Assembly: GCF_018977255.1 (NCBI RefSeq)
Contig: NW_024704772.1
Coordinates: 1,178,001 to 1,242,000, forward strand
Source of the DNA: Callorhinchus milii
Lineage: Eukaryota
DNA length: 64,000 nt
Direction of reading: 5' to 3'
Position numbers and translations under genes: made by a program. Shown here piece after piece: positions 9,101 through 37,974 of the stretch. A model generated the notes under the pieces. The model was not told the DNA's origin, made no database searches, and saw only the letters and a list, made by a program, of their open reading frames with translations. Each line of letters starts with the position of its first letter. Position 1 is the first letter of the stretch.

Positions 9101-12100
9101 AGACGTCTCAAAGCGCTTCACAGAATATACCGTGAAGTGAATTGACTGTATATTTTTATGGGTGAAACGCGGCAGCTGATTGCGCACAGCAGGATCCCAC
9201 AAACAGTCGTGGATTGAGTGACCACACATTTTTTTGGAAGGGATTTTTACCCTCAGAAAAGCCAATCGACTAACAACCGGGTTCCTACTTATTCCTCTGT
9301 AAACAGAGACGTGTGTGTGGAGTAAGGAAACTTGCCTGGGAATTGAACCCAGGTCCTCTCACTTGCAAGGTGAGTGATCTAACCACTGAGCTACAGGATT
9401 CCATGACCAAAACTCACCACCTTCGGGGAGGAGTTAAATGAAGCAGGACCGACACGATTGACTGCTCACCTTGACAGCGTCAAAAAACTGGCAGAGTTGG
9501 GATCGTTTCTGCTCGTATTCCGTCTCGAGTTTCCTCAACTCCTTGTAGAAATCCGGGTTTTCCTTCTCGTACAGCCGCAGGATCCGCTCAAACGTCTCGC
9601 GCAGTTTTTTCCGCTTGTCCTTCAGCACCTTCTCGTTCAGCTGGGGCTGCTGCACGGGATTAAACTCTGTGCGAGGACAGTAAACACAAGCTCATAACTA
9701 GGATCAAAGGCACGGTGAAGAGCACTGGAAGCACTCAACAACAACGCATTACATTTACAGTGCCCTTCCACATCCCAAAGCGATGGACAGTCAGGGATTT
9801 GGACCCGAGCTGGGGGGTTGGGATCAGGAGGGGTGGGGGACAGGGAGAGTAAGGGGTAGGAGGGTGACCGAAGGTGCAGTTAAAGAGGGACTTGAGATGG
9901 CCTTGAAGAAAGCAAGGGAGGGAGCGAGGCAAAGGGACCGTGGGATGGAGTTCCAAAGGGTGGGGGCACTCAGACTTTCTGTATACATCACAAGATGGAC
10001 AACACCAACTCTGGGACAGTCAGATCATGGTCATGTGTATCCCTCTGGGGGTTACAAGCTTCTGATGTGTCTCTTTAGAAAGCCGCTACGAAGGTTTGTC
10101 CGGGAAAATTCCCACTCATTACCCATCTCATCCAGCTTCTCCATGTCTTTGATGATCTGTTTGGGATCCTTCATCTTCAGCACCGCGGCCCGCACCATCA
10201 TTCGCTGCTTCTTGTTCTGGAAAACGGTGGGAGACAGAACAACTCAGCAGCCGCTTCCGCCCGAGCCCTCCCTTCCCAGGACGTCCCGGTGTTAGAGACC
10301 CTCACCCATCGCATTGCATCGTCCGTATCTGTGCGGCTGCCAAAGTCACTCGTTTGCAACCAGGCTGGTCACACTGTCTACTGTCTGTAGGCAGTTTTTG
10401 TTTAACATCAGAGAATCAGCCCCAACAAACCACCAAATAAAAGGCCGGATGATATTAAAACCCTCCGGATTCATCTCTGCTGCACAGTATTTCTATGTGG
10501 AGTTGTTAAAAGATGTACATGAGATATGTGCAAGGCTCAGGAGTTTCGGGTCACTTGTGGTGAAGTGCATGATATGACACCCCATCACATCTGACACAGC
10601 GAGTGGATGGAGGAAGGTGTGAAGAAAGAAAATATTCTTTAGTTTAGATGCAAAACAAAACTACTTGGAAAAGTTGTCCCCACGACAAATGAGGTGTTAA
10701 ATAAGTTTGTATTTGGCTTCTCCCCTCCTCTCAGCACTCAGTCGATCTCTCATCTTCTGAACCATACAATCTATACAGCGCTTTCCCATCAGAAGGCATC
10801 TCAAACAGTTTACAACCGGAGTTACTGAACTAAGCTGACTGGTTCTGCAATTATTCTCTCCTCTTTGGTGCTGGCAGTCTGTGCAAGCACATCTCCGCCT
10901 GTCTGAACGGTGGCCTATATATCACCTTGGTCTCTGGTGCTCATTACGGAATCCTTCCAGCAGTTCTGGCTTTAGGTCTGGAGAAGTGGCAGACTCCGAG
11001 ACAGCAGTCTGCTGGAACAAATCTATAGCAAACCTCTACTGGTCGGAGCCAAGTCTACACACATCGCTCTGGTTCTGATTTAAAAGAGTTCCTGAGCCAT
11101 GCCCACATATCATGCACATCTTTAACAACTCGCAGGACTATCAGAGACCCTGCACAAGAAAGCGCCGGAAACGCCGTGCACACAAAGTCACTCTTTACAC
11201 CACGGAGCATGCTGCGACTGTCCTCACCTTCTTCAGCTCCCGTTTCCTGGCCTCCTTTCCTGTTGTAAAAGAAATCAATATCAAGCTCAGAAACTTGGAC
11301 CTCAAAACCCTCAATGGCACAAAGCTGCACTCACACCTTTAGGAAAGTCTACTGAGAATACAAGCATCCTCATTTTGGTCAGAGTTCCACCTATGTACGC
11401 CATCTGCACATGGACAGTATAATCGGGTCTGGAATGGCACACACACTTTCCCTACAATAATAATAATCCTTGCATTTGATGCAGCGCCTTATCACGTCTT
11501 TGAGACATCTCAAAGCGTTTCACAGAATATACTGTAAAGTGAATTGACTATATATTTTGTAGGCGAAAAGCGGCAGCCAATTGCTCTCAGCAGCGTCCCA
11601 CAACCAGTCGTGCATTGAATCCCAAATTACTATTGATTTTTAAATTTTATTTTGCAGGGGTTATTACCCCCGGAAAAGTGAAAACAGGTTCCTACTAACT
11701 GCTGGGTAAACAGAGGTCCTCTCGCTTGCGAGGCGAGTGCTCTACCCACAGGGCTCCACACACATCCCAGGATGAGAGGGATGTATTCTGTTTACTTAAT
11801 TCTGAGGACTGTCAGGCACAGGTTGGTGAGACCTGAGGCTCGGAGGAGTCCCAGAATCCGTGTTCAGGTGCTGCCGGAGTTGAAGCAGCTAAAACAGCAA
11901 CTTCTGTACTAACCCTCACTGGTTTCCCACACCTCAAATGCTTATTGTAAAACTAAATGCATCACATTTTCTTGGCCTGTGATCTCTGCCCTGACGCGGG
12001 GCTTGAACCCACGTCCCCGTGTCCCAGACGGTAACATTCTATCTGAACCAGTGACTGTCGTCAGCAGTGACCTCTGATGGCTTCCCCCCCCCCAGTTTAT

Positions 12101-15139: not shown

Positions 15140-18100
15140 TCAGAGTAGAGTAGGTTCATACTGGGGTGCTGTTTGGCCTGGCTGTGCGATCACACTGTGC
15201 GAACCGACGATCGCATAAGTCATACCACCGTCAGCATCTGGCATTAAAGTATTCGATTCCTGAAATGTATGAAAACAAGATCATTAGCAAAATAAACAAA
15301 ATAATTAACATCCACTGGACTGGCTCCAGCTTCCTGCATGTCCATTGGTGGCCACGCTTTCAGCCATTATGCTGTTTAGACTTCTTCACAACACATTAGT
15401 TCTTGAGTTTATTTTGACTTTAGTTAGTACTTGTGATATATTAGCCTCTGCAGTAAGCCCAGATATAGCCTTTGTTGACATACTTTCAGAAATACCTTTG
15501 CTGTAAAGTGATACATACCCTCTGTGGTGGGAGAGGGACGGTCCTGTGTGTCATCTAAACAAACCAAAAAAACAGAGCAGCAGTTAGGTGTTTCCACAGT
15601 GCACATCGGAAAAGAAAGTGTGACGTCAGAACGATTCCTAAATTTGTCATTTGCTGGGTTGAATCTGCTCTTCCCACAGCTTGGTAACACAGCCTCGTCT
15701 GGTCTGCTTCCTGTAGTCTCAGAGGGCACCTTATCGAGGAGCCAAGATCCTAATCGAGATTGAGAACCTGGAACAATACTTTAGGGACACACACGAGACA
15801 GCAGAACAAGAGAGCAGGTTAAGAAGCTGCAAGAGGGGAAATTTCAGGACGGACAACAGAAAGGTTGTCTTTACGCAGAGGGGAATTAACGGGTTGGCCA
15901 GAAAGGGTAGTTGAGGCTGTTTAAAAACACAGCTGGACGCTGGGATGGTGGAGACGGCAGAGAAGGAGTTCTGGAGGGATGAGATCAGATGGGCCGAAGG
16001 GGCTTTCTCCAGGTTGCACCGCGATATTTTATGATATCCAAGCAAGGAAGATGAAGACTAGAGGAAGGGCATGTGATTGTTAATGTGAATTGAAAAAATT
16101 CTTCATTTAACTCACACATTGGGATACTGTTGGTTCTATATTGTTGTCCTCCAGAGTCGGACCTACAAGAAAGAAATTGTCTTAATATTAAGCATTACAC
16201 TAGTTTACTAAGGTAGTTTCTGTCTCCCGGTGTCCTGGCCCACAACCCCACAGGTAAAATTGGTCGTTCACTTCACAGCTGTTTTCGGGGCTTTGCTGTG
16301 CGCAAATCAACTGGTTGTTTGCCCACAAAACACGCAGTCACTACTCTTCACAACACTTTTAGATGTTTTAACTGGGTAACAAGGCTCAATGTCCAATATG
16401 AGTTTTTTTTACAAGTTATTTCAATCCCACGCGAGCTGTCATTGAGGAGTTTTAAATAAATAAAATAAACCCGAGTGGAGGAAAACATACAGATTTCGCC
16501 ACAAAATACACAGTCAATTCACTTTACAGTTTATTCTGTGATGCGCTTTGAGCTGTCTCCAGAATGGAATATTTAGACTAATATTTACCTGCCATCTTGT
16601 CTGCTTGCTTTAACTGCAAAGAAACAACAATAGTTTAAAGTACTCTTTAAATGTGTTTATGCCCACCTCCCACCTCCTCCCATCAAGTCAGTATCCCTGA
16701 CAGTCAAAATCCTGCGGTGCATTTTGAGATGGTTTGATGATGTGATAAACCACGAGATCGAATACAAAGATGCTTCAACTCTCACTAATTACCCCTGGCC
16801 TTGCTGCCGACTGACGCTGAACGATTCAACCCAGCATCAATGAGGGCGTACATCACGTGGCTAATGAATTTTTGTACAACTTGCCTATTCCGTTCACCTA
16901 CCTTTCTTCAGCAGGCACAGCCACGCCATTCCAATAAGGAGGAGGAGGAGTATTACTCCAGCAGAGGCTATGCCAGCTGCTAGCGGGACATGAGAAGCTG
17001 TTGAAGAGAGAGAGAGAGAGAGATTAATGATCGGGATTACTCAGTGAGTGTTGGCCTGTTTTGCCTGCAGTCGCTTCACTTTACAGTAAACTTTGCATTT
17101 AATTTGCGCCTTATCATCATAATAATAATCCTTGCATTTGATACAGCGCTTTTCATGTCTTCTCGACGTCTCAAAGTACTTCACAGAATATGCTGTAAAG
17201 TGAATTAACCGTATGATTGTGGGCGAAACGCGGCGGCCAATTGCACACAGCAGTGTCCTACAAATGGTGGATTGAGTGACCAAATTAGAATTTTTTCGGG
17301 AGGGATTATAACCCCCAGAAAAGCTATCCTCTAATCAACTAACAACTGGGTTCCTACTTACTGCTAGGTAAACAACAACAACAACAACAAAATCAGACTT
17401 GTAAAGCGCCTTTCACGTCGGGAGGACGTCCCAAGGCGCTGGACAGACAAGAGTTACGGACCCGAGCTGAGGGTCGGGGTGGAGGAGTGGGGGAAGCTTG
17501 GAGATAGAAAGCACCGTCGAAGAGGAGGGTCTTGAGGTGGATCTTGAAGATGGCGAGGGAGGGGGCGAGATGGAGGGACTGCGGGAAGGAGTTCGAGAGG
17601 GTGTGTGCAGAGTGGTGGAAGACCCACCCGCCGATAGTGGGGCGAGCGAGGCGGGGGACGTGAAGCAGGCCGGAGCCCGCTGAGCGGAGGGAGCGAACAG
17701 GGTGGTAGGGGGTTAGGAGGTCAGAAAGGTAGGGGGGAGCAAGACAGAGGAGTGTGGAGAAAAGAAACTTGCCTAAGGTTTCACCCCGCCCAGGAATCAA
17801 ACTCAGGTCCTCTCGCTTGCAAGGCGAGCGTACTAACCACCACACTATGGGACTCCACATAAATCCTTTGAAGCGCTTTGGGATGCCCTCCCAACATGAG
17901 AGACGCTGTACAAGTATAAATTGTGTAGTATGTAGCAGCGGCAACAACATTCAGTAACAAAATGGAGTAACAGTAATAATGATAATAATCCTTGCATTTG
18001 ATATAGCGCCTTATCACGTCTTCGAGACATCTCAAAACTTTGCAGGATTAATTGTGGATGATACAGTTTGCAGTAACAGTAACACACTCCAGACTTCCCT

Positions 18101-21100
18101 AAGCTGTTCGATTTCTAAAGGGTGAGATCGTGTAACATTCTGGTACTGAGCCCTGAGTGCAAAGTAGCTATGATTACTTATTACTGCCTCAGTATAACTA
18201 ACCATCTCCCCAGCTGTTGTTTCCAGGCCACAGCAGAACCCATCTCTCGTGGTGACCAGCGCGCTCACAAGGCAGAGCAAAGGGACACGGATGTTAAAGG
18301 TTCAACCAGCCGTCTTGTGAACTGAATTTGCAGACAGCAGTGTGCGAACGAGAGAAGTGTGGGCATAAACATGGAGAGCAGTGGAAGAGAAGCCAAGGGC
18401 TCACTGACCTTTCAGGATGATGTCCACCTTGGCACTGGATTCAGACAGTATGGATCCTTCAACCTCGTACAGGCAATGGTAAGTCCCTTCATCTGACATG
18501 TTGATTTGTTTGATGGTGAAAACGAGTTGTTTTTCTTTGCTGTCTACACTATGCTTCACCTTCCCGTCTTTGTATAAACGAAATTGCATTACACGTTGTG
18601 TCTGTGCGGGAGCTTTGCAGGTGAATTGAACGGTGTCCCCTGGTGTTGCAGAGTCTGGCGAGGGCCTGGTAGACAGGATGGGCTGTGAGGGCTGTTCTGA
18701 AACAAGATGATTGAAGAAATCATGTGCATTTACTCCTCAACACCTCCCTCATCCCCTCTGTTCCACCATCGGCGGCTGTGCTTCCAGCCACAGCACTCCG
18801 TAACTCTGGAACTCTCTGCCTGAATCCCACTCCCCCACCCCTCTCCTTCACTACCTTCTGTCCTCAGATCACGACTGAAGACATCGCTCTTTTTGACCAT
18901 TTCTTTCAGCAGATTTGAGTTGTTATCACTCAGGCTGTGATTGAAATGGCTCACAGCCAGCGATTCCGCACTTGAAGCATTGTCGGACTCTACGCTGTGT
19001 GAGGGGCGCTATCCAAATGCAAGTTGTTGTTGTTGTTTGGCCCAGGGCCCTGTTTCCACCGTGTCCAAATTTGCAATTTCTGCACAGTTTGTCAAAATGT
19101 CTCACAGCGCTTCGCAGGCTTTTACTGTCATGTGTAGTGACTGTGTGTTTTGTAAGTGCCGGGCGTACAACATCAGGCCTCTGTTGCCTCAAAGGAACCT
19201 TGGCAAACAGGCACAGGAAGAGGCCATTCAACTCGCTGTCACTGAGCCTATTCTGTCAGATCTTTTAATCCCATTTCCCTGCCCAACCCCTTACTGTGGT
19301 TGCAACACTAAAAGATTGCAGTTCCTGGGTTTGTTTCACACACACTAACCTTCTGCGGCCAATTGTTTTACACCCATTATTTGAACTGGAAGAGAAAATA
19401 AAACATCACGATTACAATGAGAAGAATTACAGACAAATTAGACAATTACAGATCACAACCATGTTGTGCAGGAGCCACAGCCTGGCTCTGCGGCTTTGGA
19501 CAGTAAAGCTGGCCTTACCATGGGAGAGAGAAAAGAGCTGGGACTGGGAACGAAGGGCTTGTGGAGTCCTGTAGCCCAGTGGTTAGTGCACTTGCCTTGC
19601 AAGCGAGAGGACCCGGGTTATCCTGGGTAGGATGAAAAGTTAGTCAAGTTTCCTTCCATACACATGCTTCACTTAGTCAATTGGCAGATCACTTTCTGGG
19701 TCAGTAATAATCCTTCCAAAAACAAAATTTGATCACTCAATCCACGATTGTTTGTGGGACACTGCTGTGAGCATTTGGCTGTTGCGTTTCGCCCACAAAA
19801 TCCACTTCACAAATTATTCTGTGAAGCTTTGAGATGTCTCAAAGACGTGATAAGACGCTATATCAAATGCAAGAGTTATTATTACTATTGTAGGTGGGAG
19901 AGAAGGTACACTGTGGCAGGATGAATGTCAGATACAGAGAACACCTCTGATCTATACCTCAACTCCAATTGGCCGCCTTTGCCCCATATCCCTTAATACT
20001 CTTACACACAAAACCACAAATTGCATTTATATAGCACTCTGCACACAGGGGAGATACCTAACAAACATCTATCCACCTCAGTCAGTTTGAAAGGATCCAG
20101 CATCCACAGCCTTTTGGGGGTGGTACAGAGTTCCAGATATCCACTCCCCTTTGCATGAAAAAATTGCTTCCAATAAAAAATTTGATTTAACAACAGCCCC
20201 TTGCAGTCAGGCCAGTCCTTCCACTGCAACCATCCAGTCCTACCCCAATTTCCTCTACGTCTTTGTAATACTCCCCTTCAAAACAGTGGCAAGCTGTGTG
20301 GTTTTAGCTGGTTAGACTCCAGCAGTTTCCCCCAATGCACACTCTGGGCTCTCCCCCCCCCACTCCGCCCCCAGCCTTGGCTCTCGCCAACCTGCGCCTA
20401 ATACTCTCCGGAATTAGGTAACTAGGAAGAGTCCTTCCAGGGAGAGAGAGAGAAGAGCGCATTCCATTCCAACAATCTATCTCTGGGGTCTCGATGTGTA
20501 GGTGGGACGCGTGGAATTCTCAGCCTGGTTTGGAGACTCTTTTATATTATTATTATTAAGTATGGAAATGGGTTTTCGCATATGTCAGACAGACACCTAC
20601 ATGACCAAAGAAAAATTTCAGCTCTCAGAATTCCTTGTGGGTGTCTCGTCATGTCTTTCAAAAGACCTGAATTTGAAGGATAAAGGGACCACCATCAGTT
20701 TTTAAGCCTTCAGTCTCTCTCAGTTTCAGTCTAATTTTTTTTTCAGCGACAGTATAAAAGAGGATATAAACCACTCACTCACCGGCTACCAGAATAACAG
20801 CAAAGAAAAGCATCGTCAGGTCTGATGCTGGCATGAAACTTGAGGCGCACACGACAAAGTGAGATGGCGGTTCCCTTGCTCTTGTGAAATACCCTATTGT
20901 TTACTCTCCCCCGATGACGGGCTCCTTCTGTGATTCTGGAAACGGACCCTGCTTCCTCTTAAATCAGGCGTTTCACAACCAACTGCAAATTCAGACAATC
21001 AGCAGGAAATATCTTGGTGTGAAATCGCCTTATACCTTACGCTGGACCAGCCTCTCAAACCCACCTGCTCCCCCATTCTATGAAACCATGGCCGATCAGT

Positions 21101-21789
21101 ACCTCAGCTCCATTCACCCTTTTCTCCATCTATAATAACAACAATAATAATAATGATCCTTGCATTTGATATAGCGCCTTATCATGTCGTCGAGGCATCT
21201 CAAAGAGCTTCGTGATTAAATTTTAATGATTAAAATACCATCAACAAGGATCAGTGTAAATTGTGAGACAAATATTATGAGGTGTGTGGGGATGAGGTTC
21301 AGTGTCTTTAACCACACGGTCCCTCAGCTTCTGGGTCAGAAGGTTGTGGGTTCAAGCCCCACATTGGGATTTCAACCCACATCATCCAGACTGACACTCC
21401 AGAGCATTGTTGGGGAGGAGAGTTGTATTGTTGGGTTTGAAAGGCACAAGAGAAATGTCATTTTCTGTCGTTAAGGACATTAAAGATCCCACAGCGCTAC
21501 TTGAAAAGAGAAGGGAGTTTCCTCACTCTCCTGGTGTCTGGGTCAACAATCCCCCAAATAAAATCACTCATTCAATTCATGGCTGTTTGCAGCTTTGTCA
21601 CTGTGTGCAAATTGGCTGCCGTGTTCACCTACAAAAAACACAGTCACTGCACTTTACAGTGAATCCTCTGTAGCTCTCTGGGACGTCCTCCCGATTTGAA
21701 AGGTGCTGCATCAAACATTATTGTAATCCGCAGGAGACTTCAGAAAGACAACACTCACCGACCGCAGAAAGGATGATAAACAGCGACAT
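15140..21789 (-). CDS. Single-Ig-domain type I membrane receptor, LAIR/VSTM1/LILR (leukocyte receptor complex)-like, probably inhibitory
   Basis: Leader exon 21759-21789 (MSLFIILSAV) or 20783-20813 (MLFFAVILVA); 36-nt mini-exon 19350-19385 (VQIMGVKQLAAE); Ig exon 18409-18696 (QPSQPILSTRP...GDTVQFTCKA...FRLYKDG...FTIKQINMSDEGTYHCLYE...SESSAKVDIILK); TM exon 16902-16997 (ASHVPLAAGIASAGVILLLLLIGMAWLCLLKK); tail exons 16589-16613, 16116-16162, 15519-15554, tentative 15431-15447, last 15140-15259 (…GGMTYAIV…). Confidence 0.8.
15770..16020 (+). mobile_element. CR1-type LINE 3' fragment
   Basis: Degenerate aatttcaggacggacaacagaaagg...tttacgcagaggg ORF2 end and tail gatgggccgaagggg. Confidence 0.55.
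17115..17857 (-). mobile_element. tRNA-SINE (head ~17755-17857, body and tail ~17115-17372) interrupted by an L2 3' fragment (~17375-17752)
   Basis: Minus-strand translation LAPPYLSDLLTPYHPVRSLRSAGSGLLHVPRL...FKIHLKTLLF is an L2 ORF2 C-terminus; it is flanked by the two halves of the SINE. Confidence 0.75.
19563..19890 (+). mobile_element. tRNA-derived SINE, near full length
   Basis: Head ggagtcctgtagcccagtggttagtgcacttgccttgcaagcgagaggacccgggtt; tail tatatcaaatgcaagagttattatt. Confidence 0.75.
21320..21722 (+). mobile_element. Deu-domain-like SINE
   Basis: tcagaaggttgtgggttcaagcccca B-box head; ttaaagatcccacagcgctacttgaaaagagaaggg...ggtgtctgggtcaac core; L2-like tail. Confidence 0.55.
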
Positions 21790-23919
21790 CGTCCTTCGAG
21801 TGTGAGGGGAGTTGACGGCTGAATGTGTCTAACTTTCCAAAAGCGGCCCCCAAAATGATCGATCAATGTATTTCAGCAAACCTCCAGCCACGCACAGGGT
21901 AGGTTGATTTTAAAGTCTCCTCCGAAGGCAATGCTGCTGTCTCTCCTTCCAGTACTGCGCTGCAGCGTTAGCTCAAAGTCCCCCCAAAGTTGGGGCTCAG
22001 AACCTACAACCTTCTGACTCAAAGGTGATAGAGCCAGAACCCGAGCCAGTGGTTGAGCTCAAACCTATGAGAAACATCCAGGTTTAGACCTGACCAGGAT
22101 GGGTGATCAGTATTTTGCAACTCCAGGAAGTGACACACATCCCCAGGAATTTCATCACCAAACCGCTGAATTGCGGGGGACGGGATGGGGAGAATGGGCA
22201 GCAGGGGGAACGGTGTCAGGATGGTTTATTATAGGGGAGGCCGGAGGAGGGGGTGGGGGTGTAGTGTGTGGTCAAACTTGTGATGTGATGTTCGTCACCG
22301 GTGATAATTATTGCATCCCGGGACGCTTTGCCCCATCCGTCCAGGCAGTGTCTGCCTGTGTGTATGTGTGGGGGTGTAGGGATTGCAGGGGGGTTGGTGG
22401 GTGTGGTGGGGTGGTTATGTGACGGTGTGTGGGGGTGGTGGGGGGGTAGTCTACGTTGTCAGAGACACTGCTGTGCGGATTCTCGCAGTTGTTTTATTAA
22501 ATATTAGGTGTGTGTATGTCTGCGTTGCACAACGACAGGGTGGAAAATTGTGAGACCTTGCGTGTGCTGACGGATGGGCCCTAATGGACCCTTTGATAAA
22601 ACGGGGGAACTTGCTCTGTTTTACCTTTTCCTCAATCTTGTGGCTGAGGTGGCAGAGAGAGCTGAGCGTGACCACTGGTCGGGGAATGACATAGTGGAAA
22701 TGGCATTGCATTCTGTAGCTCCCTATTTGTCTCAGCCTTTGGCTGCCGCGTTTCGCCCACTAAATGTACAGTCAATTCATTTGCACTGTATTCTCTGAGG
22801 CGCTTTGAGACGTCTCGAAAAGACGCTGTATCAAATGCAAGGATTTTTACTAGTATTATTATTATTATTAGCCTGTGCCTCAGACGGTTGCACTCAAGCC
22901 TCTGAGAATATAGGAACAGGAGGAGGCCAGTCAGGCCTTTGAATGAGATATTGGCTGTCGTTTTCCCCTACAAAATAGACACTTGACAGTGAATCCTGCG
23001 ATGGTCTGGTTTTCCTTGGGACCTCTGTCAAGCATTGCCAAGGCTGAAAACTGGCCTTAGAAACCGCAGCACAAATATACATTAAGTGGATTGAAGCTCT
23101 CTTCTTCCCTATCCAGCCCAATGTGCCTCACAGCTGCCCTTTGATCATACAATGCTTCCAGCTGTGTCCAAATTGCCTCCAGGATTGGTCTGGCCTACAA
23201 AACAGGTTGGAGGGAGTGGAGGGCTTGAACCCAAAACCTTCTGACTCAAGAGACGAGAGTGCTACCAACTGAGCCAGGCTCATAAGAATAATCCTTGCAT
23301 TTGATTATGTCTTTGAAACGTCTCAAAGTGCTTCACAGAGTATATTGTAAAGTGAATTGACTATATATTTTCTGGGCGAAAAGTGGCAGCCAATTGCACA
23401 AACAGCAGTGGTCCCACAAACAGTCCTGGATTGAGTGACCAAATTATTATTATATATACTTTTTGTGATAATGCATTGGAACTGAGACTGAACTCAACTG
23501 CCAGTGAGGGTCTAAATCTACAATCCGCTGATCCAGAGGAGAGAGAGAGAGAAAGAGAGTGACTGAGCCAAAGGGGTGTGTGTGTGGCGGGGGTGGGATT
23601 ATAAACTCCGTTGGAAACACAGAATGAAGTGCTCCCTGGCTTAAGCAGGATCAAGCCATCTCCCCGTTTCCCCTAGTCCTGACCTCAGGCCTGCGTTACA
23701 CACACAGATCTGCTTCTCATCTGATGCACAGCACAAGCCGTTGTGGGCACATGTGATAAACATTCTGTCAGTGTATAACTCATGTATACAGTGCGAAGCC
23801 AGGAATGTAATGTCTGATGTGATGGGCTCCATCTGACTCCCAGCCCATCTGGTAATGTTTAAGACAATGTGTGTTGTCGCAACGAAAGCACCAGCGACTG
23901 CCACATTTTTACATTCGTA

Positions 23920-24185
23920 GAGTCCTGTGGCTCAGTGGTTAGAACACTCGCCTCGCAAGTGACAGGACGCAGGTTCGATTCCCGGGCAGGTGAAATGTTG
24001 GGCAAGTTTCCTTTCGCCACACACATCTCGCAGTAAGTAGGAACCCGGTTGTTAGTCCAGCAAGTCACAAACTCACCCAGCAATCACTCAGTCACACTTT
24101 ACGGTGAATCCTGTGAAGCGCTTTGAGACGTCCTCCCGCCGTGCAAGGCGCTGGGTCAGATGTAAGGATCATTATTATCGTCATT
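23920..24185 (+). mobile_element. tRNA-derived SINE
   Basis: gagtcctgtggctcagtggttagaacactcgcctcgcaag...ggttcgattcccggg (A/B boxes), gtaagtaggaacccggttgttagt body, gaagcgctttgagacgtcc tail. Confidence 0.8.
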
Positions 24186-24804
24186 ATAAATTGTCCCTCT
24201 CAGTGTGAACCGAGTTCACTGATCTGCTCAGAGGATTGACGGAGTGGGATATAATAATGGTGATTGACGGAGTGGGATGTAATAGTAATACACTTCATTT
24301 ATACATTATGTAGCAGTAAAAATTATGTACATTGCATTTGATATAGCCCCTCATCAGGTCGTTGAGACGTCTCAAAGCCTTTCACAGGATACACTGTAAA
24401 GTGTGGTGACTGTGTGTTTGGTGGATGAAGTTGTGACTTACTGAACTAACAACCAGGTTCCTACTTACTGTGAGAGAGGAGTGTGTGTGGAGTGACTGTG
24501 GGTGAAATGAGGCAGTCAGTTGGGCACAGCAGTATCCCACAAACAGTCGTGTCCCACAAACATGTTGAGTGAAGCGTGTGGTGAAGGTTTAGCTGAATAA
24601 CGTTCCGTGAGAGAGTTTACAGTTTCCTTTATGGACTGGGTTTGCAGTGTGTAAAAGTGTCTGCTCAAATCACACGTTTAGCAACCTGGAGTGCACATGG
24701 TTACCATCTGGGCTTCATTGTCACAGAATGGCATTGGTAAACAGCAGCAACAAAAAAACCTCTCCACGTCTCTTGGAACATTGGTAGATGAAAAAAGGAG
24801 GTGA

Positions 24805-25270
24805 TGCAGAGAGTGGGAGAGTGACAGTGATAGATATAGACAGTGAGAGAGACAGAAAGAGACAGTGTGAGAGAGAGAGAGTGACAGAGGGAGAAAGAGA
24901 GAGAGAGAGAGTGACGGAGAGGAGAGTGACAAAAAGGGAGTGAGAGAGCCAGAAAGAGAGGGGGAGTGACAGAGAGGAGAGTGGCAGTGAGAGGGGGAGT
25001 GGCAGAGAGAGAGGAGATTGACAGTGAGAGAGAGAGTGAGAGCCAGAGAGTCCGAGGCAAATTGAGAGAGACACCGAGAGAGTCAGAGATTGCGATAGAG
25101 TCAGTGAGAGACACAGACAGTGAGTGAGTGAGAGAGAGAGAGAGAGAGAAAATTAGAGAGGTTCAGACAGTAAGAGAGTCAGATACTCAGGTAGAGTGAG
25201 AGCGCGAGAGAGACCGACAGTGAGAGACAGAGATTGAGTTAGAGACAGAGAGAATCACAGACAGAGAGCG
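24805..25270 (+). repeat. GA-rich low-complexity tract
   Basis: (GA)n-dominated sequence; duplicated at ~35350-35820. Confidence 0.85.
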
Positions 25271-26085
25271 AGGGGAAATTTTGCCCGCGATCGATTGGGA
25301 AACAGAATTACAGGTGGTTTTTTTATTATCAATATTGTTATTACTATCCTTTTTAAGTGGAAAGAAAGTCTCCAAAGAGTCGCTTGAAGTTGGGTTAAAA
25401 CAGTGAAGCGATTCCAGTGATTCCGATTAACTTGGGAGGCTGTTCGCTTAAAGTGATCCAACGTTGAATTTGAAAGTAATTGTTTGCCGGTTTAAAAATC
25501 AAACTCTGGCAGATCAAACATCGGGTTTAACGGGGGATTTGGACTTTGACTGAATTGGACATTTGGGAGACTTGTGTCTTAAGTATTTTTTTGTGTGTGG
25601 GTGTCTGTGGTGTGTCTGTCTGTCTGTCTGTGTGTGTGTCTGTATGTACAGGAGTGCGGAGTCACTCTCTCTCTCTGACACGGAGTTGGGACGTCCTCCC
25701 GACATGAAAGGCGCTACGCAGATATAATTTTGTATTGTGTGTGTGCTGTGTGTGGGTGTCTTGATTCTCAATTTAGTTTAAATCTTACTGATTCACTGTA
25801 TTACTGTCTGTGGAGTCCTGCAGCTCCGGGCTGGAGGTTGGGATCAGGAGGGGGGGGTGAAGGGCAGGGACGGTGGGGGTAAGGGGGTGTGGGGGTGTGG
25901 GTGACTGAAGGTGCAGTCGAAAAGAAGGGTCTTGAGACAGGCCCTTGAAGGAGCCAAGGGAGGGAGGGAGGGGGCGCGAGGTGAAGGGACTGTGGGATGG
26001 AGTTCCCAGAGCAACACCAGGAACGTTCAAACAGGATGGCTTTAATGTATTGTGTCTCTTACACAGGATTGCTCAGTGGGTGAGG

Positions 26086-27453: not shown

Positions 27454-28168
27454 ACGGCGGATCTTAAAATGGTAGGAAAGAGAAACGGTCGAACGGCTAA
27501 GACTAGGCGGAATTCAGGGCCTCTTGTTTGTGGGAGCGAGTTTCACACGCGCTCCTCCCACCCCCCACCCCCCACCCCCCCCACCCCCACCCCATCCATC
27601 CGAGGTGCAGTGCGTCACCACCACGATGGTGACCAGAGAAAACACCAGTTGTGAGCTTGTTTTTTTCCATCTTTCATTAAACGTTTTTAATCCGAATAGA
27701 AAAAGTGTCACTTTCTCTCCCTCTCTCCCTCCCTCCCTCTTTCTCTCCCACTCCCTCTCCCCCTCCCTCCCTCCCCCCCACAATCAGGCTCCAGCAGGCA
27801 TACCTATGTGAACGAGATGCTCCTGGCCAGTGAAGAGTTAATCTTGCGTGTGAGTGCGAGACCGCGGGGGACGCTGACCCCTCCCTGGTTGGCTCCACCT
27901 GTTACAGATGTTAACCAGACTCGGGCTGATTTATCACCCATCTGGAGCCCGGAGCTGAGGAGCCTCTGGTTACATACCACACTGCTGACGTCTCCCCATT
28001 CTCTCCCCCTCCACCCCGCCAGACAGCTTCCTCTCCCCCCCCCACCACCCCGGCAGCTTCTCACCCTCACCCTCACCCCCACCACCCCCACCACCAATCA
28101 ACACCCGCCCCCACCAGCTCCGGCCTCGCTGCAAACCGGGCAGGTGGGGGTCTCAACGGTGTGTGCGG

Positions 28169-28867: not shown

Positions 28868-28920
28868 CTGGCAACGAGAGGAGGAGGAGAAGGTGCTCAC
28901 AGCCGGGAAGAGACTGGGAC

Positions 28921-29021: not shown

Positions 29022-32000
29022 CCCTTCATCTGACATGTTGATTTGTTTGATGGTGAAAACGAGTTGTTTTCTTTGCTGTCTACACTATGCTTCACCTTCC
29101 CGTCTTTGTATAAACGAAATTGCATTACACGTTGTGTCTGTGCGGGAGCTTTGCAGGTGAATTGAACGGTGTCCCTGGTGTTGCAGAGTCTGGCGAGGGC
29201 CTGGTAGACAGGATGGGCTGTGAGGGCTGTTCTGAAACAAGATGATTGAAGAAATCATGTGCATTTACTCCTCAACACCTCCCTCATCCCCTCTGTTCCA
29301 CCATCGGCGGCTGTGCTTCCAGCCACAGCACTCCGAACTCTGGAACTCTCTGCCTGAATCCCACTCCCCCACCCCTCTCCTTCACTACCTTCTGTCCTCA
29401 GATCACGACTGAAGACATCGCTCTTTTTGACCATTTCTTTCAGCAGATTGAGTTGTTATCACTCAGGCTGTGATTGAAATGGCTCACAGCCAGCGATTCC
29501 GCACTTGAAGCATTGTCGGACTATACGCTGTGTGAGGGGCGCTATCCAAATGCAAGTTGTTGTTGTTGTTTGGCCCAGGGCCCTGTTTCCACCGTGTCCA
29601 AATTTGCAATTTCTGCACAGTTTGTCAAAATGGTCTCACAGCGCTTCGCCAGGCTTTTACTGTCATGTGTAGTGACTGTGTGTTTTGTAAGTGCCGGGGC
29701 GTACAACATCAGGCCTCTGTTGCCTCAAAGGAACCTGGCAAACAGGCACAGGAAGAGGCCATTCAACTCGCTGTCACTGAGCCTATTCTGTCAGATCTTT
29801 TAATCCCATTTCCCTGCCCAACCCCTTACTGTGGTTGCAACACTAAAAGATTGCAGTTCCTGGGTTTGTTTCACACACACTAACCTTCTGCGGCCAATTG
29901 TTTTACACCCATTATTTGAACTGGAAGAGAAAATAAAACATCACGATTACAATGAGAAGAATTACAGACAAATTAGACAATTACAGATCACAACCATGTT
30001 GTGCAGGAGCCACAGCCTGACTCTGCGGCTTTGGACAGTAAAGCTGGCCTTACCATGGGAGAGAGAAAAGAGCTGGGACTGGGAACGAAGGGCTTGTGGA
30101 GTCCTGTAGCCCAGTGGTTAGTGCACTTGCCTTGCAAGCGAGAGGACCCGGGTTATCCTGGGTAGGATGAAAAGTTAGTCAAGTTTCCTTCCATACACAT
30201 GCTTCACTTAGTCAATTGGCAGATCACTTTCTGGGTCAGTAATAATCCTTCCAAAAACAAAATTGATCACTCAATCCACGATTGTTTGTGGGACACTGCT
30301 GTGAGCATTTGGCTGTTGCGTTTCGCCCACAAAATCCACTTCACAAATTATTCTGTGAAGCTTTGAGATGTCTCAAAGACGTGATAAGACGCTATATCAA
30401 ATGCCAGAGTTATTATTACTATTGTAGGTGGGAGAGAAGGTACACTGTGGCAGGATGAATGTCAGATACAGAGAACACCTCTGATCTATACCTCAACTCC
30501 AATTGGCCGCCTTTGCCCCATATCCCTTAATACTCTTACACACAAAACCACAATTGCATTTATATAGCACTCTGCACACAGGGGAGATACCTAACAAACA
30601 TCTATCCACCTCAGTCAGTTTGAAAGGATCCAGCATCCACAGCCTTTTGGGGGTGGTACAGAGTTCCAGATATCCACTCCCCTTTGCATGAAAAAATTGC
30701 TTCCAATAAAAAATTTGATTTAACAACAGCCCCTTGCAGTCAGGCCAGTCCTTCCACTGCAACCATCCAGTCCTACCCCAATTTCCTCTACGTCTTTGTA
30801 ATACTCCCCTTCAAAACAGTGGCAAGCTGTGTGGTTTTAGCTGGTTAGACTCCAGCAGTTTCCCCCAATGCACACTCTGGGCTCTCCCCCCCCCACTCCC
30901 CCCCCCCAGCCTTGGCTCTCGCCAACCTGCGCCTAATACTCTCCGGAATTAGGTAACTAGGAAGAGTCCTTCCAGGGAGAGAGAGAGAAGAGCGCATTCC
31001 ATTCCAACAATCTATCTCTGGGGTCTCGATGTGTAGGTGGGACGCGTGGAATTCTCAGCCTGGTTTGGAGACTCTTTATATTATTATTATTAAGTATGGA
31101 AATGGGTTTTCGCATATGTCAGACAGACACCTACATGACCAAAGAAAAATTTCAGCTCTCAGAATTCCTTGTGGGTGTCTCGTCATGTCTTTCAAAAGAC
31201 CTGAATTTGAAGGATAAAGGGACCACCATCAGTTTTTAAGCCTTCAGTCTCTCTCAGTTTCAGTCTAATTTTTTTTTCAGCGACAGTATAAAAGAGGATA
31301 TAAACCACTCACTCACCGGCTACCAGAATAACAGCAAAGAAAAGCATCGTCAGGTCTGATGCTGGCATGAAACTTGAGGCGCACACGACAAAGTGAGATG
31401 GCGGTTCCCTTGCTCTTGTGAAATACCCTATTGTTTACTCTCCCCCGATGACGGGCTCCTTCTGTGATTCTGGAAACGGACCCTGCTTCCTCTTAAATCA
31501 GGCGTTTCACAACCAACTGCAAATTCAGACAATCAGCAGGAAATATCTTGGTGTGAAATCGCCTTATACCTTACGCTGGGACCAGCCTCTCAAACCCACC
31601 TGCTCCCCCATTCTATGAAACCATGGCCGATCAGTACCTCAGCTCCATTCACCCTTTTCTCCATCTATAATAACAACAATAATAATAATGATCCTTGCAT
31701 TTGATATAGTGCCTTATCATGTCGTCGAGGCATCTCAAAGAGCTTCGTGATTAAATTTTAATGATTAAAATACCATCAACAAGGATCAGTGTAAATTGTG
31801 AGACAAATGGGCCGTATTATGAGGTGTGTGGGGATGAGGTTCAGTGTCTTTAACCACACGGTCCCTCAGCTTCTGGGTCAGAAGGTTGTGGGTTCAAGCC
31901 CCACATTGGGATTTCAACCCACATCATCCAGACTGACACTCCAGAGCATTGTTGGGGAGGAGAGTTGTATTGTTGGGTTTGAAAGGCACAAGAGAAATGT

Positions 32001-32331
32001 CATTTTCTGTCGTTAAGGACATTAAAGATCCCACAGCGCTACTTGAAAAGAGAAGGGAGTTTCCTCACTCTCCCGGTGTCTGGGTCAACAATCCCCCAAA
32101 GAAAATCACTCATTCAATTCATGGCTGTTTGCAGCTTTGTCACTGTGTGCAAATTGGCTGCCGTGTTCACCTACAAAAAACACAGTCACTGCACTTTACA
32201 GTGAATCCTCTGTAGCTCTCTGAGACGTCCTCCCGATTTGAAAGGTGCTGCATCAAACATTATTGTAATCCGCAGGAGACTTCAGAAAGACAACACTCAC
32301 CGACCGCAGAAAGGATGATAAACAGCGACAT
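29022..32331 (-). pseudogene. 3'-truncated duplicate of the Ig receptor gene (two leader exons, mini-exon, partial frameshifted Ig exon)
   Basis: Same exons as 18485-21789; no TM or cytoplasmic exons; likely artefactual. Confidence 0.55.
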
Positions 32332-35300
32332 CGTCCTTCGAGTGTGAGGGGAGTTGACGGCTGAATGTGTCTAACTTTCCAAAAGCGGCCCCCAAAATGA
32401 TCGATCAATGTATTTCAGCAAACCTCCAGCCACGCACAGGGTAGGTTGATTTTAAAGTCTCCTCCGAAGGCAATGCTGCTGTCTCTCCTTCCAGTACTGC
32501 GCTGCAGCGTTAGCTCAAAGTCCCCCCAAAGTTGGGGCTCAGAACCTACAACCTTCTGACTCAAAGGTGATAGAGCCAGAACCCGAGCCAGTGGTTGAGC
32601 TCAAACCTATGAGAAACATCCAGGTTTAGACCTGACCAGGATGGGTGATCAGTATTTTGCAACTCCAGGAAGTGACACACATCCCCCAGGAATTTCATCA
32701 CCAAACCGCTGAATTGCGGGGGACGGGATGGGGAGAATGGGCAGCAGGGGGAACGGTGTCAGGATGGTTTATTATAGGGGAGGCCGGAGGAGGGGGTGGG
32801 GGTGTAGTGTGTGGTCAAACTTGTGATGTGATGTTCGTCACCGGTGATAATTATTGCATCCCGGGACGCTTTGCCCCATCCGTCCAGGCAGTGTCTGCCT
32901 GTGTGTATGTGTGGGGTGTAGGGATTGCAGGGGGGTTGGTGGGTGTGGTGGGGTGGTTATGTGACGGTGTGTGGGGGTGGTGGGGGGTAGTCTACGTTGT
33001 CAGAGACACTGCTGTGCGGATTCTCGCAGTTGTTTTATTAAATATTAGGTGTGTGTATGTCTGCGTTGCACAACGACAGGGTGGAAAATTGTGAGACCTT
33101 GCGTGTGCTGACGGATGGGCCCTAATGGACCCTTTGATAAAACGGGGGAACTTGCTCTGTTTTACCTTTTCCTCAATCTTGTGGCTGAGGTGGCAGAGAG
33201 AGCTGAGCGTGACCACTGGTCGGGGAATGACATAGGTGGAAATGGCATTGCATTCTGTAGCTCCCTATTTGTCTCAGCCTTTGGCTGCCGCGTTTCGCCC
33301 ACTAAATGTACAGTCAATTCATTTGCACTGTATTCTCTGAGGCGCTTTGAGACGTCTCGAAAAGACGCTGTATCAAATGCAAGGATTTTTACTAGTATTA
33401 TTATTATTATTAGCCTGTGCCTCAGACGGTTGCACTCAAGCCTCTGAGAATATAGGAACAGGAGGAGGCCAGTCAGGCCTTTGAATGAGATATTGGCTGT
33501 CGTTTTCCCCTACAAAATAGACACTTGACAGTGAATCCTGCGATGGTCTGGTTTTCCTTGGGACCTCTGTCAAGCATTGCCAAGGCTGAAAACTGGCCTT
33601 AGAAACCGCAGCACAAATATACATTAAGTGGATTGAAGCTCTCTTCTTCCCTATCCAGCCCAATGTGCCTCACAGCTGCCCTTTGATCATACAATGCTTC
33701 CAGCTGTGTCCAAATTGCCTCCAGGATTGGTCTGGCCTACAAAACAGGTTGGAGGGAGTGGAGGGCTTGAACCCAAAACCTTCTGACTCAAGAGACGAGA
33801 GTGCTACCAACTGAGCCAGGCTCATAAGAATAATCCTTGCATTTGATTATGTCTTTGAAACGTCTCAAAGTGCTTCACAGAGTATATTGTAAAGTGAATT
33901 GACTATATATTTTCTGGGCGAAAAGTGGCAGCCAATTGCACAAACAGCAGTGGTCCCACAAACAGTCCTGGATTGAGTGACCAAATTATTATTATATATA
34001 CTTTTTGTGATAATGCATTGGAACTGAGACTGAACTCAACTGCCAGTGAGGGTCTAAATCTACAATCCGCTGATCCAGAGGAGAGAGAGAGAGAAAGAGA
34101 GTGACTGAGCCAAAGGGGTGTGTGTGTGGCGGGGGTGGGATTATAAACTCCGTTGGAAACACAGAATGAAGTGCTCCCTGGCTTAAGCAGGATCAAGCCA
34201 TCTCCCCGTTTCCCCTAGTCCTGACCTCAGGCCTGCGTTACACACACAGATCTGCTTCTCATCTGATGCACAGCACAAGCCGTTGTGGGCACATGTGATA
34301 AACATTCTGTCAGTGTATAACTCATGTATACAGTGCGAAGCCAGGAATGTAATGTCTGATGTGATGGGCTCCATCTGACTCCCAGCCCATCTGGTAATGT
34401 TTAAGACAATGTGTGTTGTCGCAACGAAAGCACCAGCGACTGCCACATTTTTACATTCGTAGAGTCCTGTGGCTCAGTGGTTAGAACACTCGCCTCGCAA
34501 GTGACAGGACGCAGGTTCGATTCCCGGGCAGGTGAAATGTTGGGCAAGTTTCCTTTCGCCACACACACATCTCGCAGTAAGTAGGAACCCGGTTGTTAGT
34601 CCAGCAAGTCACAAACTCACCCAGCAATCACTCAGTCACACTTTACGGTGAATCCTGTGAAGCGCTTTGAGACGTCCTCCCGCCGTGCAAGGCGCTGGGT
34701 CAGATGTAAGGATCATTATTATCGTCATTATAAATTGTCCCTCTCAGTGTGAACCGAGTTCACTGATCTGCTCAGAGGATTGACGGAGTGGGATATAATA
34801 ATGGTGATTGACGGAGTGGGATGTAATAGTAATACACTTCATTTATACATTATGTAGCAGTAAAAATTATGTACATTGCATTTGATATAGCCCCTCATCA
34901 GGTCGTTGAGACGTCTCAAAGCCTTTCACAGGATACACTGTAAAGTGTGGTGACTGTGTGTTTGGTGGATGAAGTTGTGACTTACTGAACTAACAACCAG
35001 GTTCCTACTTACTGTGAGAGAGGAGTGTGTGTGGAGTGACTGTGGGTGAAATGAGGCAGTCAGTTGGGCACAGCAGTATCCCACAAACAGTCGTGTCCCA
35101 CAAACATGTTGAGTGAAGCGTGTGGTGAAGGTTTAGCTGAATAACGTTCCGTGAGAGAGTTTACAGTTTCCTTTATGGACTGGGTTTGCAGTGTGTAAAA
35201 GTGTCTGCTCAAATCACACGTTTAGCAACCTGGAGTGCACATGGTTACCATCTGGGCTTCATTGTCACAGAATGGCATTGGTAAACAGCAGCAACAAAAA

Positions 35301-36638
35301 AACCTCTCCACGTCTCTTGGAACATTGGTAGATGAAAAAAGGAGGTGATGCAGAGAGTGGGAGAGTGACAGTGATAGATATAGACAGTGAGAGAGACAGA
35401 AAGAGACAGTGTGAGAGAGAGAGAGTGACAGAGGGAGAAAGAGAGAGAGAGAGAGTGACGGAGAGGAGAGTGACAAAAAGGGAGTGAGAGAGCCAGAAAG
35501 AGAGGGGGAGTGACAGAGAGGAGAGTGGCAGTGAGAGGGGGAGTGGCAGAGAGAGAGGAGATTGACAGTGAGAGAGAGAGTGAGAGCCAGAGAGTCCGAG
35601 GCAAATTGAGAGAGACACCGAGAGAGTCAGAGATTGCGATAGAGTCAGTGAGAGACACAGACAGTGAGTGAGTGAGAGAGAGAGAGAGAGAGAGAGAAAA
35701 TTAGAGAGGTTCAGACAGTAAGAGAGTCAGATACTCAGGTGGAGTGAGAGCGCGAGAGAGACCGACAGTGAGAGACAGAGATTGAGTTAGAGACAGAGAG
35801 AATCACAGACAGAGAGCGAGGGGAAATTTTGCCCGCGATCGATTGGGAAACAGAATTACAGGTGGTTTTTTTATTATCAATATTGTTATTACTATCCTTT
35901 TTAAGTGGAAAGAAAGTCTCCAAAGAGTCGCTTGAAGTTGGGTTAAAACAGTGAAGCGATTCCAGTGATTCCGATTAACTTGGGAGGCTGTTCGCTTAAA
36001 GTGATCCAACGTTGAATTTGAAAGTAATTGTTTGCCGGTTTAAAAATCAAACTCTGGCAGATCAAACATCGGCTTTAACGGGGGATTTGGACTTTGACTG
36101 AATTGGACATTTGGGAAACTTGTGTCTTAAGTATTTTTTTGTGTGTGGGTGTCTGTGGTGTGTCTGTCTGTCTGTCTGTCTGTCTGTGTGTCTGTATGTA
36201 CAGGAGTGCGGAGTCACTCTCTCTCTCTGACACGGAGTTGGGACGTCCTCCCGACATGAAAGGCGCTACGCAGATATAATTTTGTATTGTGTGTGTGCTG
36301 TGTGTGGGTGTCTTGATTCTCAATTTAGTTTAAATCTTACTGATTCACTGTATTACTGTCTGTGGAGTCCTGCAGCTCCGGGGCTGGAGGTTGGGATCAG
36401 GAGGGGGGGGTGAAGGGCAGGGACGGTGGGGGTAAGGGGGTGTGGGGGTGTGGGTGACTGAAGGTGCAGTCGAAAAGAAGGGTCTTGAGACAGGCCCTTG
36501 AAGGAGCCAAGGGAGGGAGGGAGGGGGCGCGAGGTGAAGGGACTGTGGGATGGAGTTCCCAGAGCAACACCAGGAACGTTCAAACAGGATGGCTTTAATG
36601 TATTGTGTCTCTTACACAGGATTGCTCAGTGGGTGAGG

Positions 36639-37974
36639 ATGAAGTGTGCTGCTCTGCCGGCTCTGGCTCTGGCTCTGGCTCTGGCACTTGCTTTAAGTCT
36701 CGAAACGGCACAGTGTAAAGAGCAACGGGTGACAGACAACTGGAAATGGAACTACAGAGAAGGAGGTAATGGAGGGCGATTGGTGTCACGGCTGAAATCC
36801 CATCCAGTCTCAGCCTCTTGCACCGTCATTATCGTCTTAACATTTAAGAGCGAGCCAGGGAGCGAGCGAGTGAGTGAGTGAGTGAGCCAGGGAGGGAGGG
36901 TGCGAGAGAGGGATCGAGGGAAAGAGTGAGGGGCAGAGAGAGGAGTGCAGCTGCACTCTCTCTGACCGTGAGTGAGGGAGGGAGCGAGAGGAAGGATGAG
37001 CGAGGAGCAGAGAGGTGAGTGCGGAGTCACTCTCTCTCTGACACGGAGCGAGGGTTAGGCTCTGTTTGGAGCTCCGTGGACAGTAATGGCTGTTTTCACA
37101 GTTGACCGGGTGAATATCCAGGGAGTGCGGAGTGTTTCCCGTGTCCTCGACCACTGGGGGAACAGGATCTTCAACACAATGAGGGACACCATCATCAACC
37201 ACCCCCAGGACGTGCTGCCCGACTACTCCAGGTACACACCCGCTCTGCACCCCTCCACGCTCATGTGTACTATTCCAGGTACGGGAGGAGTGTAATGCAC
37301 TTAAGAGAATGTAACAGCCAGTGTTTCCCTCTCTGCACTACAATAATAATCCTGACATTTGACACAGCACCTTTCACGTCGGGAGGACATCTCACAGCGG
37401 TTCACGGGACATGACTGTACAGTGGAGTGACTGTGTGTTTTGTGCGGGAACGCAAACTGCCGTGAAGTGACTGAGCAAGCTAGCAAGTGATTTGATTTGT
37501 CTGGGGGATTGTCAGTCAGAGAATGAGCTGTGCACCCTCTCACTCTCTCTCCGTCCATTTCCCTCCCTCTCCCTCTCTCCCTCCATCCCCCTTCTCTCTC
37601 CCTATATCTCCTTTCCTCTCCCCCTCCCACGCTCTCTCTCTCTCTCTCAACGCAGGATCAGGCCACTCTCTGAAGCCCTGGATGATTTGTTCCGGGAGGT
37701 GAAGACCCTGAAAAAACACCTGTTGTTGCTGAACGAGCGGTTGGGGGGTCTCGAGAGTGACCTGACCTCGGTGGGCTTCGGCAAACCCCTGAAGGTGAAG
37801 CGGGTGGTGATGAGGAGGGTCCCACAGAGAGCCGGGGGCAGGATTCTGTCCAGGAGAATGAGACTCCAACCCAGACAGAGGGGGCGGGGGGCATATCGCA
37901 CCTCCCAGCGCCAGCCCAGGGCCTCCCCAGGCACACGGGAGAGGATCGTGCCACGCAATTCCACCTATACTTAG
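36639..37974 (+). CDS. Uncharacterised secreted protein (~191 aa): signal peptide, helical core, coiled coil, Arg-rich tail; intact copy
   Basis: Exons 36639-36765 (MKCAALPALALALALALALSLETAQCKEQRVTDNWKWNYREG), 37102-37231 (VDRVNIQGVRSVSRVLDHWGNRIFNTMRDTIINHPQDVLPDYSR) and 37656-37974 (IRPLSEALDDLFREVKTLKKHLLLLNERLGGLESDL...RNSTYT*). Phases 1 and 2 are consistent. An acceptor (ttacacag) just upstream of the ATG implies a non-coding first exon. Confidence 0.8.

Follow-up and report, generated by a model that had tools for sequence, protein, structure and literature searches.

A split leader has been described for CHIR/TILR and other genes of the leukocyte receptor complex (LRC; PMC3601082), and a 30/21-bp leader rule for the FcRL genes (PMC2413239; papers are cited here and below from excerpts). 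In paired receptors, the pairing of a charged transmembrane (TM) segment with adaptors that carry an immunoreceptor tyrosine-based activation motif (ITAM) is established (PMC1458963), and the inhibitory counterpart of that motif (ITIM) is defined as (I/L/V/S)xYxx(L/V) (PMC6182393). In the excerpted text of Akula et al. (2014) no C2-only LRC homologues are reported from shark genomes, that of the elephant shark included, and the family is dated to bony fish (PMC4016189); Guselnikov and Taranin (2019) regard the fish counterparts of the LRC as uncertain and point out that automatic 'IGSF1-like' names mislead (PMC6557307). We describe here a gene from the elephant shark, Callorhinchus milii, that lies on the minus strand of a 64-kb window (the whole stretch of DNA analysed, C31:1178001-1242000, on the 4.04-Mb contig C31 of the assembly) and is listed in RefSeq as LOC103189542, with a product (XP_007908165.2) of 202 amino acids (aa) called 'uncharacterized protein'. 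Our favoured reading, to which we give a somewhat better than even chance, is that this spliced gene encodes a type I membrane protein with one C2-type immunoglobulin (Ig) domain, likely belongs to the wider LRC family, and is non-inhibitory while stemming from an inhibitory ancestor. Its LRC kinship in the wide sense is, taken by itself, very probable.

The exons (Table 1) were located by a splice-site scan in which donors were graded on a crude 9-point scale. Together they encode a type I membrane protein whose single Ig domain occupies one exon, and XP_007908165.2 matches the window accordingly: the Ig exon is 100% identical, and leader B, the mini-exon, the TM segment and the tail all map there. 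A preliminary description of this DNA had announced a signal peptide split over exons of 31 and 36 nucleotides (nt), a 288-nt Ig exon with a particular C2 motif, an uncharged TM segment and several small cytoplasmic exons. The last three were all recovered, the small exons measuring 25, 47 and 36 nt ahead of a last exon that starts at 15259; in the case of the leader, both exons exist in the sequence but the RefSeq model starts in leader B instead. The gene is not annotated as the orthologue of any named gene. Leaders A and B are alike in having a phase-1 GT 31 nt downstream of an ATG, and the leader B peptide is similar to the leader of a sawshark paralogue; two similar 31-nt leader exons (20783-20813 and 21759-21789) stand in tandem and are possibly alternative first exons. 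At a donor score of at least 8, only the mini-exon and its duplicate copy qualify as 36-nt exons anywhere in the window, both strands included (4 candidate exons when all lengths of 18-60 nt are taken), and the splice filter passed no 21-nt exon in the interval from the leaders to the Ig exon. The second leader exon of KIR and LILR genes has 36 nt, a size for which no source was found in the literature searched.

The nearest Ig relatives in the genome (18 of 20 matches) belong to a tandem cluster on another contig (C15:1745670-1799830), the eight units of which all have the 36-nt mini-exon. Five of its TM exons are intact and contain a Lys, one is damaged, one unit comprises only leader and mini-exon, and the TM segment of the last gene is uncharged. 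This last gene has three Ig domains, tail exons of 28, 35 and 32 nt, a last exon that is read in phase 0, and two canonical ITIMs, VTYAVL and TVYASV; it aligns with the window gene at every exon, with 23 of 36 nt identical in the mini-exon and 58 of 96 in the TM exon. Judged by sequence, the C15 genes would constitute an LRC-type paired-receptor cluster with activating and inhibitory forms, and the last of them appears to be a better candidate than the window gene for a shark inhibitory LRC receptor. That the window gene lies alone, as was suggested earlier, is correct locally (864 kb of contig C31, which is 4.04 Mb long, contain no further Ig exon of LRC type) but not genome-wide, given the paired cluster. 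The cluster is flanked by a MORC gene and COX11, and the same contig holds a tandem glypican pair (10.26-10.42 Mb region) and what we take to be an RBM41-like gene, which together suggest that C15 is homologous to human Xq, where IGSF1 is located.

In the cytoplasmic tail, the annotated transcript has 25+47+36 = 108 nt between the TM exon and the last exon, which brings translation into the latter in phase 1 and to a stop after nine further codons. In comparison with the C15 paralogue, exons 1 and 2 (25 and 47 nt) keep the phase, while exon 3, with a net difference of +4 nt, does not, and in the annotated transcript the last exon is read out of its old frame. The resulting 202-aa protein has tail tyrosines at positions 174, 182 and 197, one of them in a YxN context, and contains neither an ITIM nor an immunoreceptor tyrosine-based switch motif. 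The tyrosine motifs PMYDT and MTYAIV, from which an inhibitory receptor had been proposed, are both readable in the DNA, but they fall in separate frames in the transcript that RefSeq and the contig described below support, and MTYAIV has a Met at position -2, which puts it outside the ITIM consensus; for the annotated transcript the proposed inhibitory function is thus not supported.

Read in the old frame, the last exon shares 54 of 117 nt with that of the two-ITIM C15 paralogue in an alignment without gaps, a value reached in none of 20000 shuffles (a 3' control gives 32 and an intron control 42). Identities by codon position are 15/24/15, the same pattern as in the TM exon (17/26/15), and a local protein alignment scores 45 (2 of 2000 shuffles; 337 and 125 of 2000 for the other frames). 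Because the old-frame exon is homologous to the paralogue's exon with VTYAVL, we regard MTYAIV as a vestigial ITIM; the paralogue's second ITIM has been lost from the old frame. As the old frame keeps its coding pattern, the frame change would have come late. When the old-frame tail was compared with the C-termini (200 residues each) of 269 fetched proteins, the four highest-scoring were reptile-type LILR-like ITIM tails (scores 53, 51, 45 and 40); in shuffles the best of the set averaged 39 and 0 of 150 reached 53, likewise with TYA held fixed. The last exon of the C15 paralogue scores 70 against the same group, and the other two frames of the window gene are unremarkable.

Evidence of RNA type consists of contigs from four of seven runs that were guessed to be RNA, which show spacings and not splice joints. 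In a contig of run X1 the Ig piece begins at the acceptor at 18696, with 134 letters ahead of it. In contig 21 of run X4 the TM piece ends at 16902 and a last-exon piece follows from 15258 with 109 letters between them, i.e. the sum of 25+47+36 and one base more, the first of the last exon; forms with MTYAIV in frame need other spacings (84, 132, 144 and others), none of which this contig fits. Tail exon 3 is also represented, gap-free over 33 of its 36 nt, in a contig of run X2, which stems from a second study. An assembly error as the source of the frame change was considered and rejected: RefSeq holds two versions of the protein, both of 202 aa and the older one differing by one substitution, and this equal length, together with the fit of contigs from two studies, implies that the frame is not an error of the assembly.

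The Ig domain was modelled with AlphaFold from a 47-row alignment (predicted local distance difference test, pLDDT, 94.7; a single-sequence model with pLDDT 45.8 was not used). LRC proteins fill the first 24 rows listed by Foldseek, with CHIR-AB1, LAIR1, LILRs, PirB, OSCAR, KIR and NKp46 as leaders, and the first Fc-gamma receptor (Fc-gamma-RIIb) appears at rank 29. VIA-align has PirB as its best match (Z 16.1, root mean square deviation 1.1, 90 aligned), with CHIR-AB1 at Z 14.8, LILRB4 at 14.6, LAIR1 at 13.8, FCRLA at 12.6 and FcRL5 at 12.1. The domain carries YxCxY and has no C-strand Trp, and its Pfam matches are Ig_C19orf38 and Ig families of a generic kind. Whether queried with the Ig exon (68 candidates) or with the full-length protein (370 candidates), the word index returned one protein only, XP_007908165.2 itself, and HMMER against 1.84 billion representatives gave no single-Ig orthologue among the best 150 of 1294 by summed-domain rank, which is weak evidence of absence, these searches overlooking single-domain relatives below about 40% identity.

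A first tree of 109 rows, for which the careful mode was unfinished, gave a split from FcRL at support 8. The final tree comprises 74 Ig domains, 37 rows having been dropped (long branches, near-copies, one prokaryote-sourced protein and one PECAM-like shark protein) and 2 added; here FcRL/LITR and sialoadhesin separate from the rest at 90/95, with the window domain on the LRC side, among a lineage of YxCxY domains from sharks, coelacanth, teleosts and one turtle, and nearest to the C15 paralogues. Constraining it to group with the amniote LRC gives an equally good tree (log-likelihood change +0.34; approximately unbiased (AU) test, p 0.49), which is compatible with a sister position to that clade. 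By the tree the domain belongs neither to LAIR/SIRL nor to the crown of amniote LRC domains, and the LAIR/SIRL-like identity of the preliminary description finds no support. What is supported is the kinship with LRC-type receptors, on the basis of the fold, the gene structure in common with the paralogues, the homology of the tail to turtle LILR-like proteins, and the linkage to CNOT3. Large proteins in which YxCxY Ig domains of LRC type occur together with SRCR domains, automatically named DMBT1-like, are also present in sharks (P0004, P0015, P0159, P0160) and teleosts (many proteins of the carp family).

CNOT3 lies about 130 kb from the gene (Not3 domain at C31:1050855-1054271, C-terminal domain near 1062500, by Pfam), and Cnot3 is one of the conserved genes that lie within the LRC of mammals; the framework genes there are Cnot3, Prpf31, Rps9, Ndufa3, Ttyh1, Mboat7 and Tmc4 (PMC6557307). 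The LRC has been placed on a proto-gnathostome microchromosome (Nakatani et al., PMC8302630, where no receptor is named in the excerpted text), and this placing fits the small, gene-dense contig C31. On the other side, 140-340 kb off, Pfam recognizes BTB, Ribosomal_S17_N, GFO_IDH_MocA, PP1c_bdg, SAPS, Fes1, Adaptin_N and methyltransferase families. We take these to be ZBTB45, RPS11, DHDH, PPP1R15A, PPP6R1, HSPBP1, AP2A1 and PRMT1 of human 19q13.3-13.4, with the proviso that Pfam does not separate paralogues. The flanking genes had been given as WBP11 and HEBP1: WBP11 and a SOUL (HEBP1-like) gene are indeed found by Pfam, but between the window gene and the SOUL gene lies an unnamed plus-strand gene as well, the spliced 5' exons of which overlap the window gene in antisense. 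It is conceivable, though clearly unlikely, that the elephant shark retains a proto-LRC, in which the window gene would occupy the original place of the complex next to CNOT3, with the paired cluster on another chromosome and the ITIM of the window gene switched on and off by the choice of 5' splice site; if that were true, the LRC family would be as old as the jawed-vertebrate ancestor, a date that we consider likely in its own right.

Several observations weigh against the favoured reading. In the case of the genomic context, only one of the seven framework families searched (CNOT3) is on C31 and three are on other contigs only (the assembly yielded no match to the families of PRPF31, RPS9 and NDUFA3, which is not evidence of absence), and the nearest neighbours (WBP11, SOUL, helicase, 7tm_3), presumably genes of human 12p, are not LRC framework genes. 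In the case of the tail, its form depends on the gene model and on one contig, of depth 2.3 and from a run only guessed to be RNA, which gives the spacing and does not display the splice joints themselves; a pairwise BLASTP of the last-exon peptides of the gene and the C15 paralogue returned no alignment; and an old frame open for 39 codons is no rarity, 25.8% of such stretches in the window being open by chance. In the case of the Ig domain, PECAM-1 reaches Z 14.1 in VIA-align, tied with CHIR and LAIR1 (within 1 Z of ranks 2-8); the fold search leans to the LRC because the alignment behind the model is rich in LRC-type rows; the amniote LRC clade of the 74-row tree (21 rows, 99/99) leaves the window domain outside; and the constraint with FcRL, 16.5 log units worse, has an AU p of 0.11 and is not rejected.

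With these points in mind, four other explanations were weighed. The gene may still yield an inhibitory form by splicing, next to the ITIM-less one: the candidate downstream donors at 15496 and 15484 score 7/9 each, the same as the annotated donor, and join PMYDT and MTYAIV in one frame in open products of 233 and 237 aa, from an old frame that is open and retains its excess of identities at second codon positions. Since RefSeq knows a single form, the sole spanning contig fits the 108-nt form, and the motif left would be one that departs from the consensus (PMC6182393), its canonical companion being gone, we regard such a rescue as rather unlikely. A decaying gene, still transcribed, in which the frame change of the tail is one of the first steps towards loss and the protein is without a selected role, would agree with the two tail frame changes relative to the paralogue, the low contig depth, the overlapping antisense transcript and the lack of an orthologue in other sharks by sequence searches. 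Yet the exons from the leader to the TM segment (leader, mini-exon, Ig, TM) are undamaged and have GT-AG sites, the Ig domain retains its fold and its two cysteines, the stop sits in the last exon, and the limited reach of the searches noted above applies to the missing orthologue, which makes decay quite improbable.

The remaining two explanations concern the family. The gene might be the orthologue in cartilaginous fish of HIDE1 (C19orf38), a membrane protein that has a single Ig domain and lacks a classic ITIM; this is suggested by the Pfam match to Ig_C19orf38 (34.2 bits, above the cut-off) and by HIDE1 clusters at ranks 1 and 3 in the ESM Atlas. The Pfam model, however, also matches 21 of the 47 alignment members, and 45 places in the genome, among them a C15 exon at 38.3 bits, the Atlas score of 0.96 is tied with those of allergin-1, TARM1, IGSF1, FCRL2 and VSTM1, and the window gene corresponds exon by exon to a paralogue with two ITIMs. 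From human gene order, HIDE1 is expected beside CARM1. Matches to CARM1 are on contigs C29 and C1, so that the window gene, on C31, is not beside it; no LRC-type Ig exon was found in 120 kb around CARM1 on C29, which speaks for the orthologue, improbable as it is on the whole. Convergence upon an LRC likeness by a separate C2-Ig lineage (of the FcRL/LITR or PECAM-1/allergin-1 type) draws on the AU result and the PECAM-1 score given above, on FCRL5 as the top of the summed sequence searches, and on two fish non-LRC tails that score 50 and 46 against the paralogue's exon. But the rank of FCRL5 sums nine weak domains (the best at 8.6 bits, against 22.0 for PirB D1), the second exon has 36 nt and not 21, YxCxY occurs without the C-strand Trp, and tail and fold point to the LRC; convergence is very improbable.

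For a non-inhibitory receptor with an inhibitory ancestor, the course of events may be pictured as follows. An old duplication of an inhibitory receptor gene would have given rise to the gene, and a late frame change in tail exon 3 would have taken the ITIM out of the protein. Leader and mini-exon are predicted to send the one-domain receptor to the cell surface, presumably of leukocytes, where it may bind a surface or matrix ligand. The TM segment has no charged residue, so that pairing with an ITAM adaptor, of the kind expected for the C15 genes with a Lys in the TM segment, is not expected, and neither is recruitment of SHP-1/2 by an annotated tail without ITIM. The product would thus likely act as a non-inhibitory receptor, either as a decoy or by binding an adaptor, and a signal, if any, might run through the three tail tyrosines, one of them in the YxN context of a Grb2-type motif, and not through SHP-1/2.

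Table 1. Exons of the window gene and associated features (positions in the window)
Feature	Position	Strand	Remarks
Leader exon A	21759..21789	-	31 nt, ATG, phase-1 donor; inside antisense exon; RefSeq model uses leader B instead
Leader exon B, coding part	20783..20834	-	52 nt (first ATG) or 31 nt (second ATG); RefSeq XP_007908165.2
Second leader exon (mini-exon)	19350..19385	-	36 nt, phase 1/1; in RefSeq model
Ig exon	18409..18696	-	288 nt, C2-type of LRC type, phase 1, one N-glycosylation sequon
TM exon	16902..16997	-	96 nt; helix without charged residue
Cytoplasmic exon 1	16589..16613	-	25 nt (C15 paralogue 28 nt)
Cytoplasmic exon 2	16116..16162	-	47 nt (C15 paralogue 35 nt)
Cytoplasmic exon 3	15519..15554	-	36 nt (C15 paralogue 32 nt); frame change; candidate alternative donors 15496, 15484
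Last exon, annotated reading	15230..15259	-	9 codons, then stop
Last exon, ancestral frame	15140..15259	-	39 codons including vestigial ITIM MTYAIV; out of frame in annotated transcript
Antisense exon of neighbouring plus-strand transcript	18227..18478	+	overlaps Ig exon
Antisense exon over leader A	21734..21897	+	spliced on to 26068 and beyond
Second copy of 18485-28920	29022..39463		98.7%, 17 mismatches, 66 gaps; both leaders, mini-exon, cut frameshifted Ig exon

The plus-strand transcript extends over 18227-27541 of the window (exons 18227-18478, 21734-21897, about 26068-26210, 26580-26712, and 27129 on) and runs into an unnamed open reading frame with a signal-peptide-like start, of which the one exon tried had no Pfam match. 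The 10.5-kb near-identical duplicate, joined at a 30-N stretch and with 66 gaps against 17 mismatches, likely represents overlapping contig ends in the assembly. A head-to-head pair of tRNA-Leu(aag) genes is found at 43972-44053 and 44634-44715 of the window, and tRNA-Ala-like calls at 9326-9399 and 17782-17853 are probably repeat heads. On a larger scale, C31:778001-1642000 interleaves Pfam-called genes of several human regions, which we take to be 22q12-13, 12p12-13, 7q and 19q13.3-13.4, and a very long open frame with a sacsin domain lies nearby on C31.

LRC-type genes in a chimaera contradict the 2014 report of none in sharks (PMC4016189, as excerpted). They are indicated, in activating and inhibitory forms, by four lines that do not depend on names, namely fold, 36-nt exon, ITIM-exon homology and CNOT3 linkage. 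The domain type as such is present in the databases, many shark proteins being 'IGSF1-like' in RefSeq already, but the record of XP_007908165.2 gives no family, no function and no remark on the lost ITIM frame. No paper on the window gene or on a shark LRC was found in the open literature, subscription journals being mostly outside the search. The elephant-shark genome paper (PMC3964593) had no matches in its main text and one supplementary file, and its other supplements may bear on novelty; PMC9162367 and PMC5290243 had no matches on the subject, and PMC9652883, as excerpted, does not mention sharks. The genes described here are concrete objects for asking when paired receptors that read MHC (major histocompatibility complex) molecules or collagen arose, and the window gene offers an example of an inhibitory receptor that would have lost its brake when one of its small tail exons changed frame, the former motif being still legible in the DNA.

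Among known systems, the closest are the genes of the C15 cluster (XP_042196746.1, 'immunoglobulin superfamily member 1-like') and the sawshark protein UPI00398EF37B, with 35-41% identity in the Ig domain, the 36-nt mini-exon, a TM exon of 96-99 nt and, in the last C15 gene, tail exons homologous to those of the window gene. They differ in having two or three Ig domains, in their location on another contig, and in a Lys or Arg in the TM segment (activating type) or two canonical ITIMs (inhibitory type). The turtle LILR-like inhibitory proteins (P0213 and P0234, named as such, and the unnamed P0258 and P0056) have a similar uncharged TM segment and a TYA-type ITIM exon, but several Ig domains and both ITIMs in frame. 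HIDE1/C19orf38 likewise combines a single Ig domain with a TM segment and a short tail; it was likened to the gene via Pfam and Atlas matches, and the Pfam model is not specific to its family. Chicken CHIR-AB1 and human LAIR1 and VSTM1, finally, are top Foldseek matches (TM-score 0.78-0.84) and likewise possess one C2 domain and a split leader, whereas the window gene, at 22-30% identity to them, lies outside the amniote LRC clade and has neither an in-frame ITIM nor a charged TM residue.

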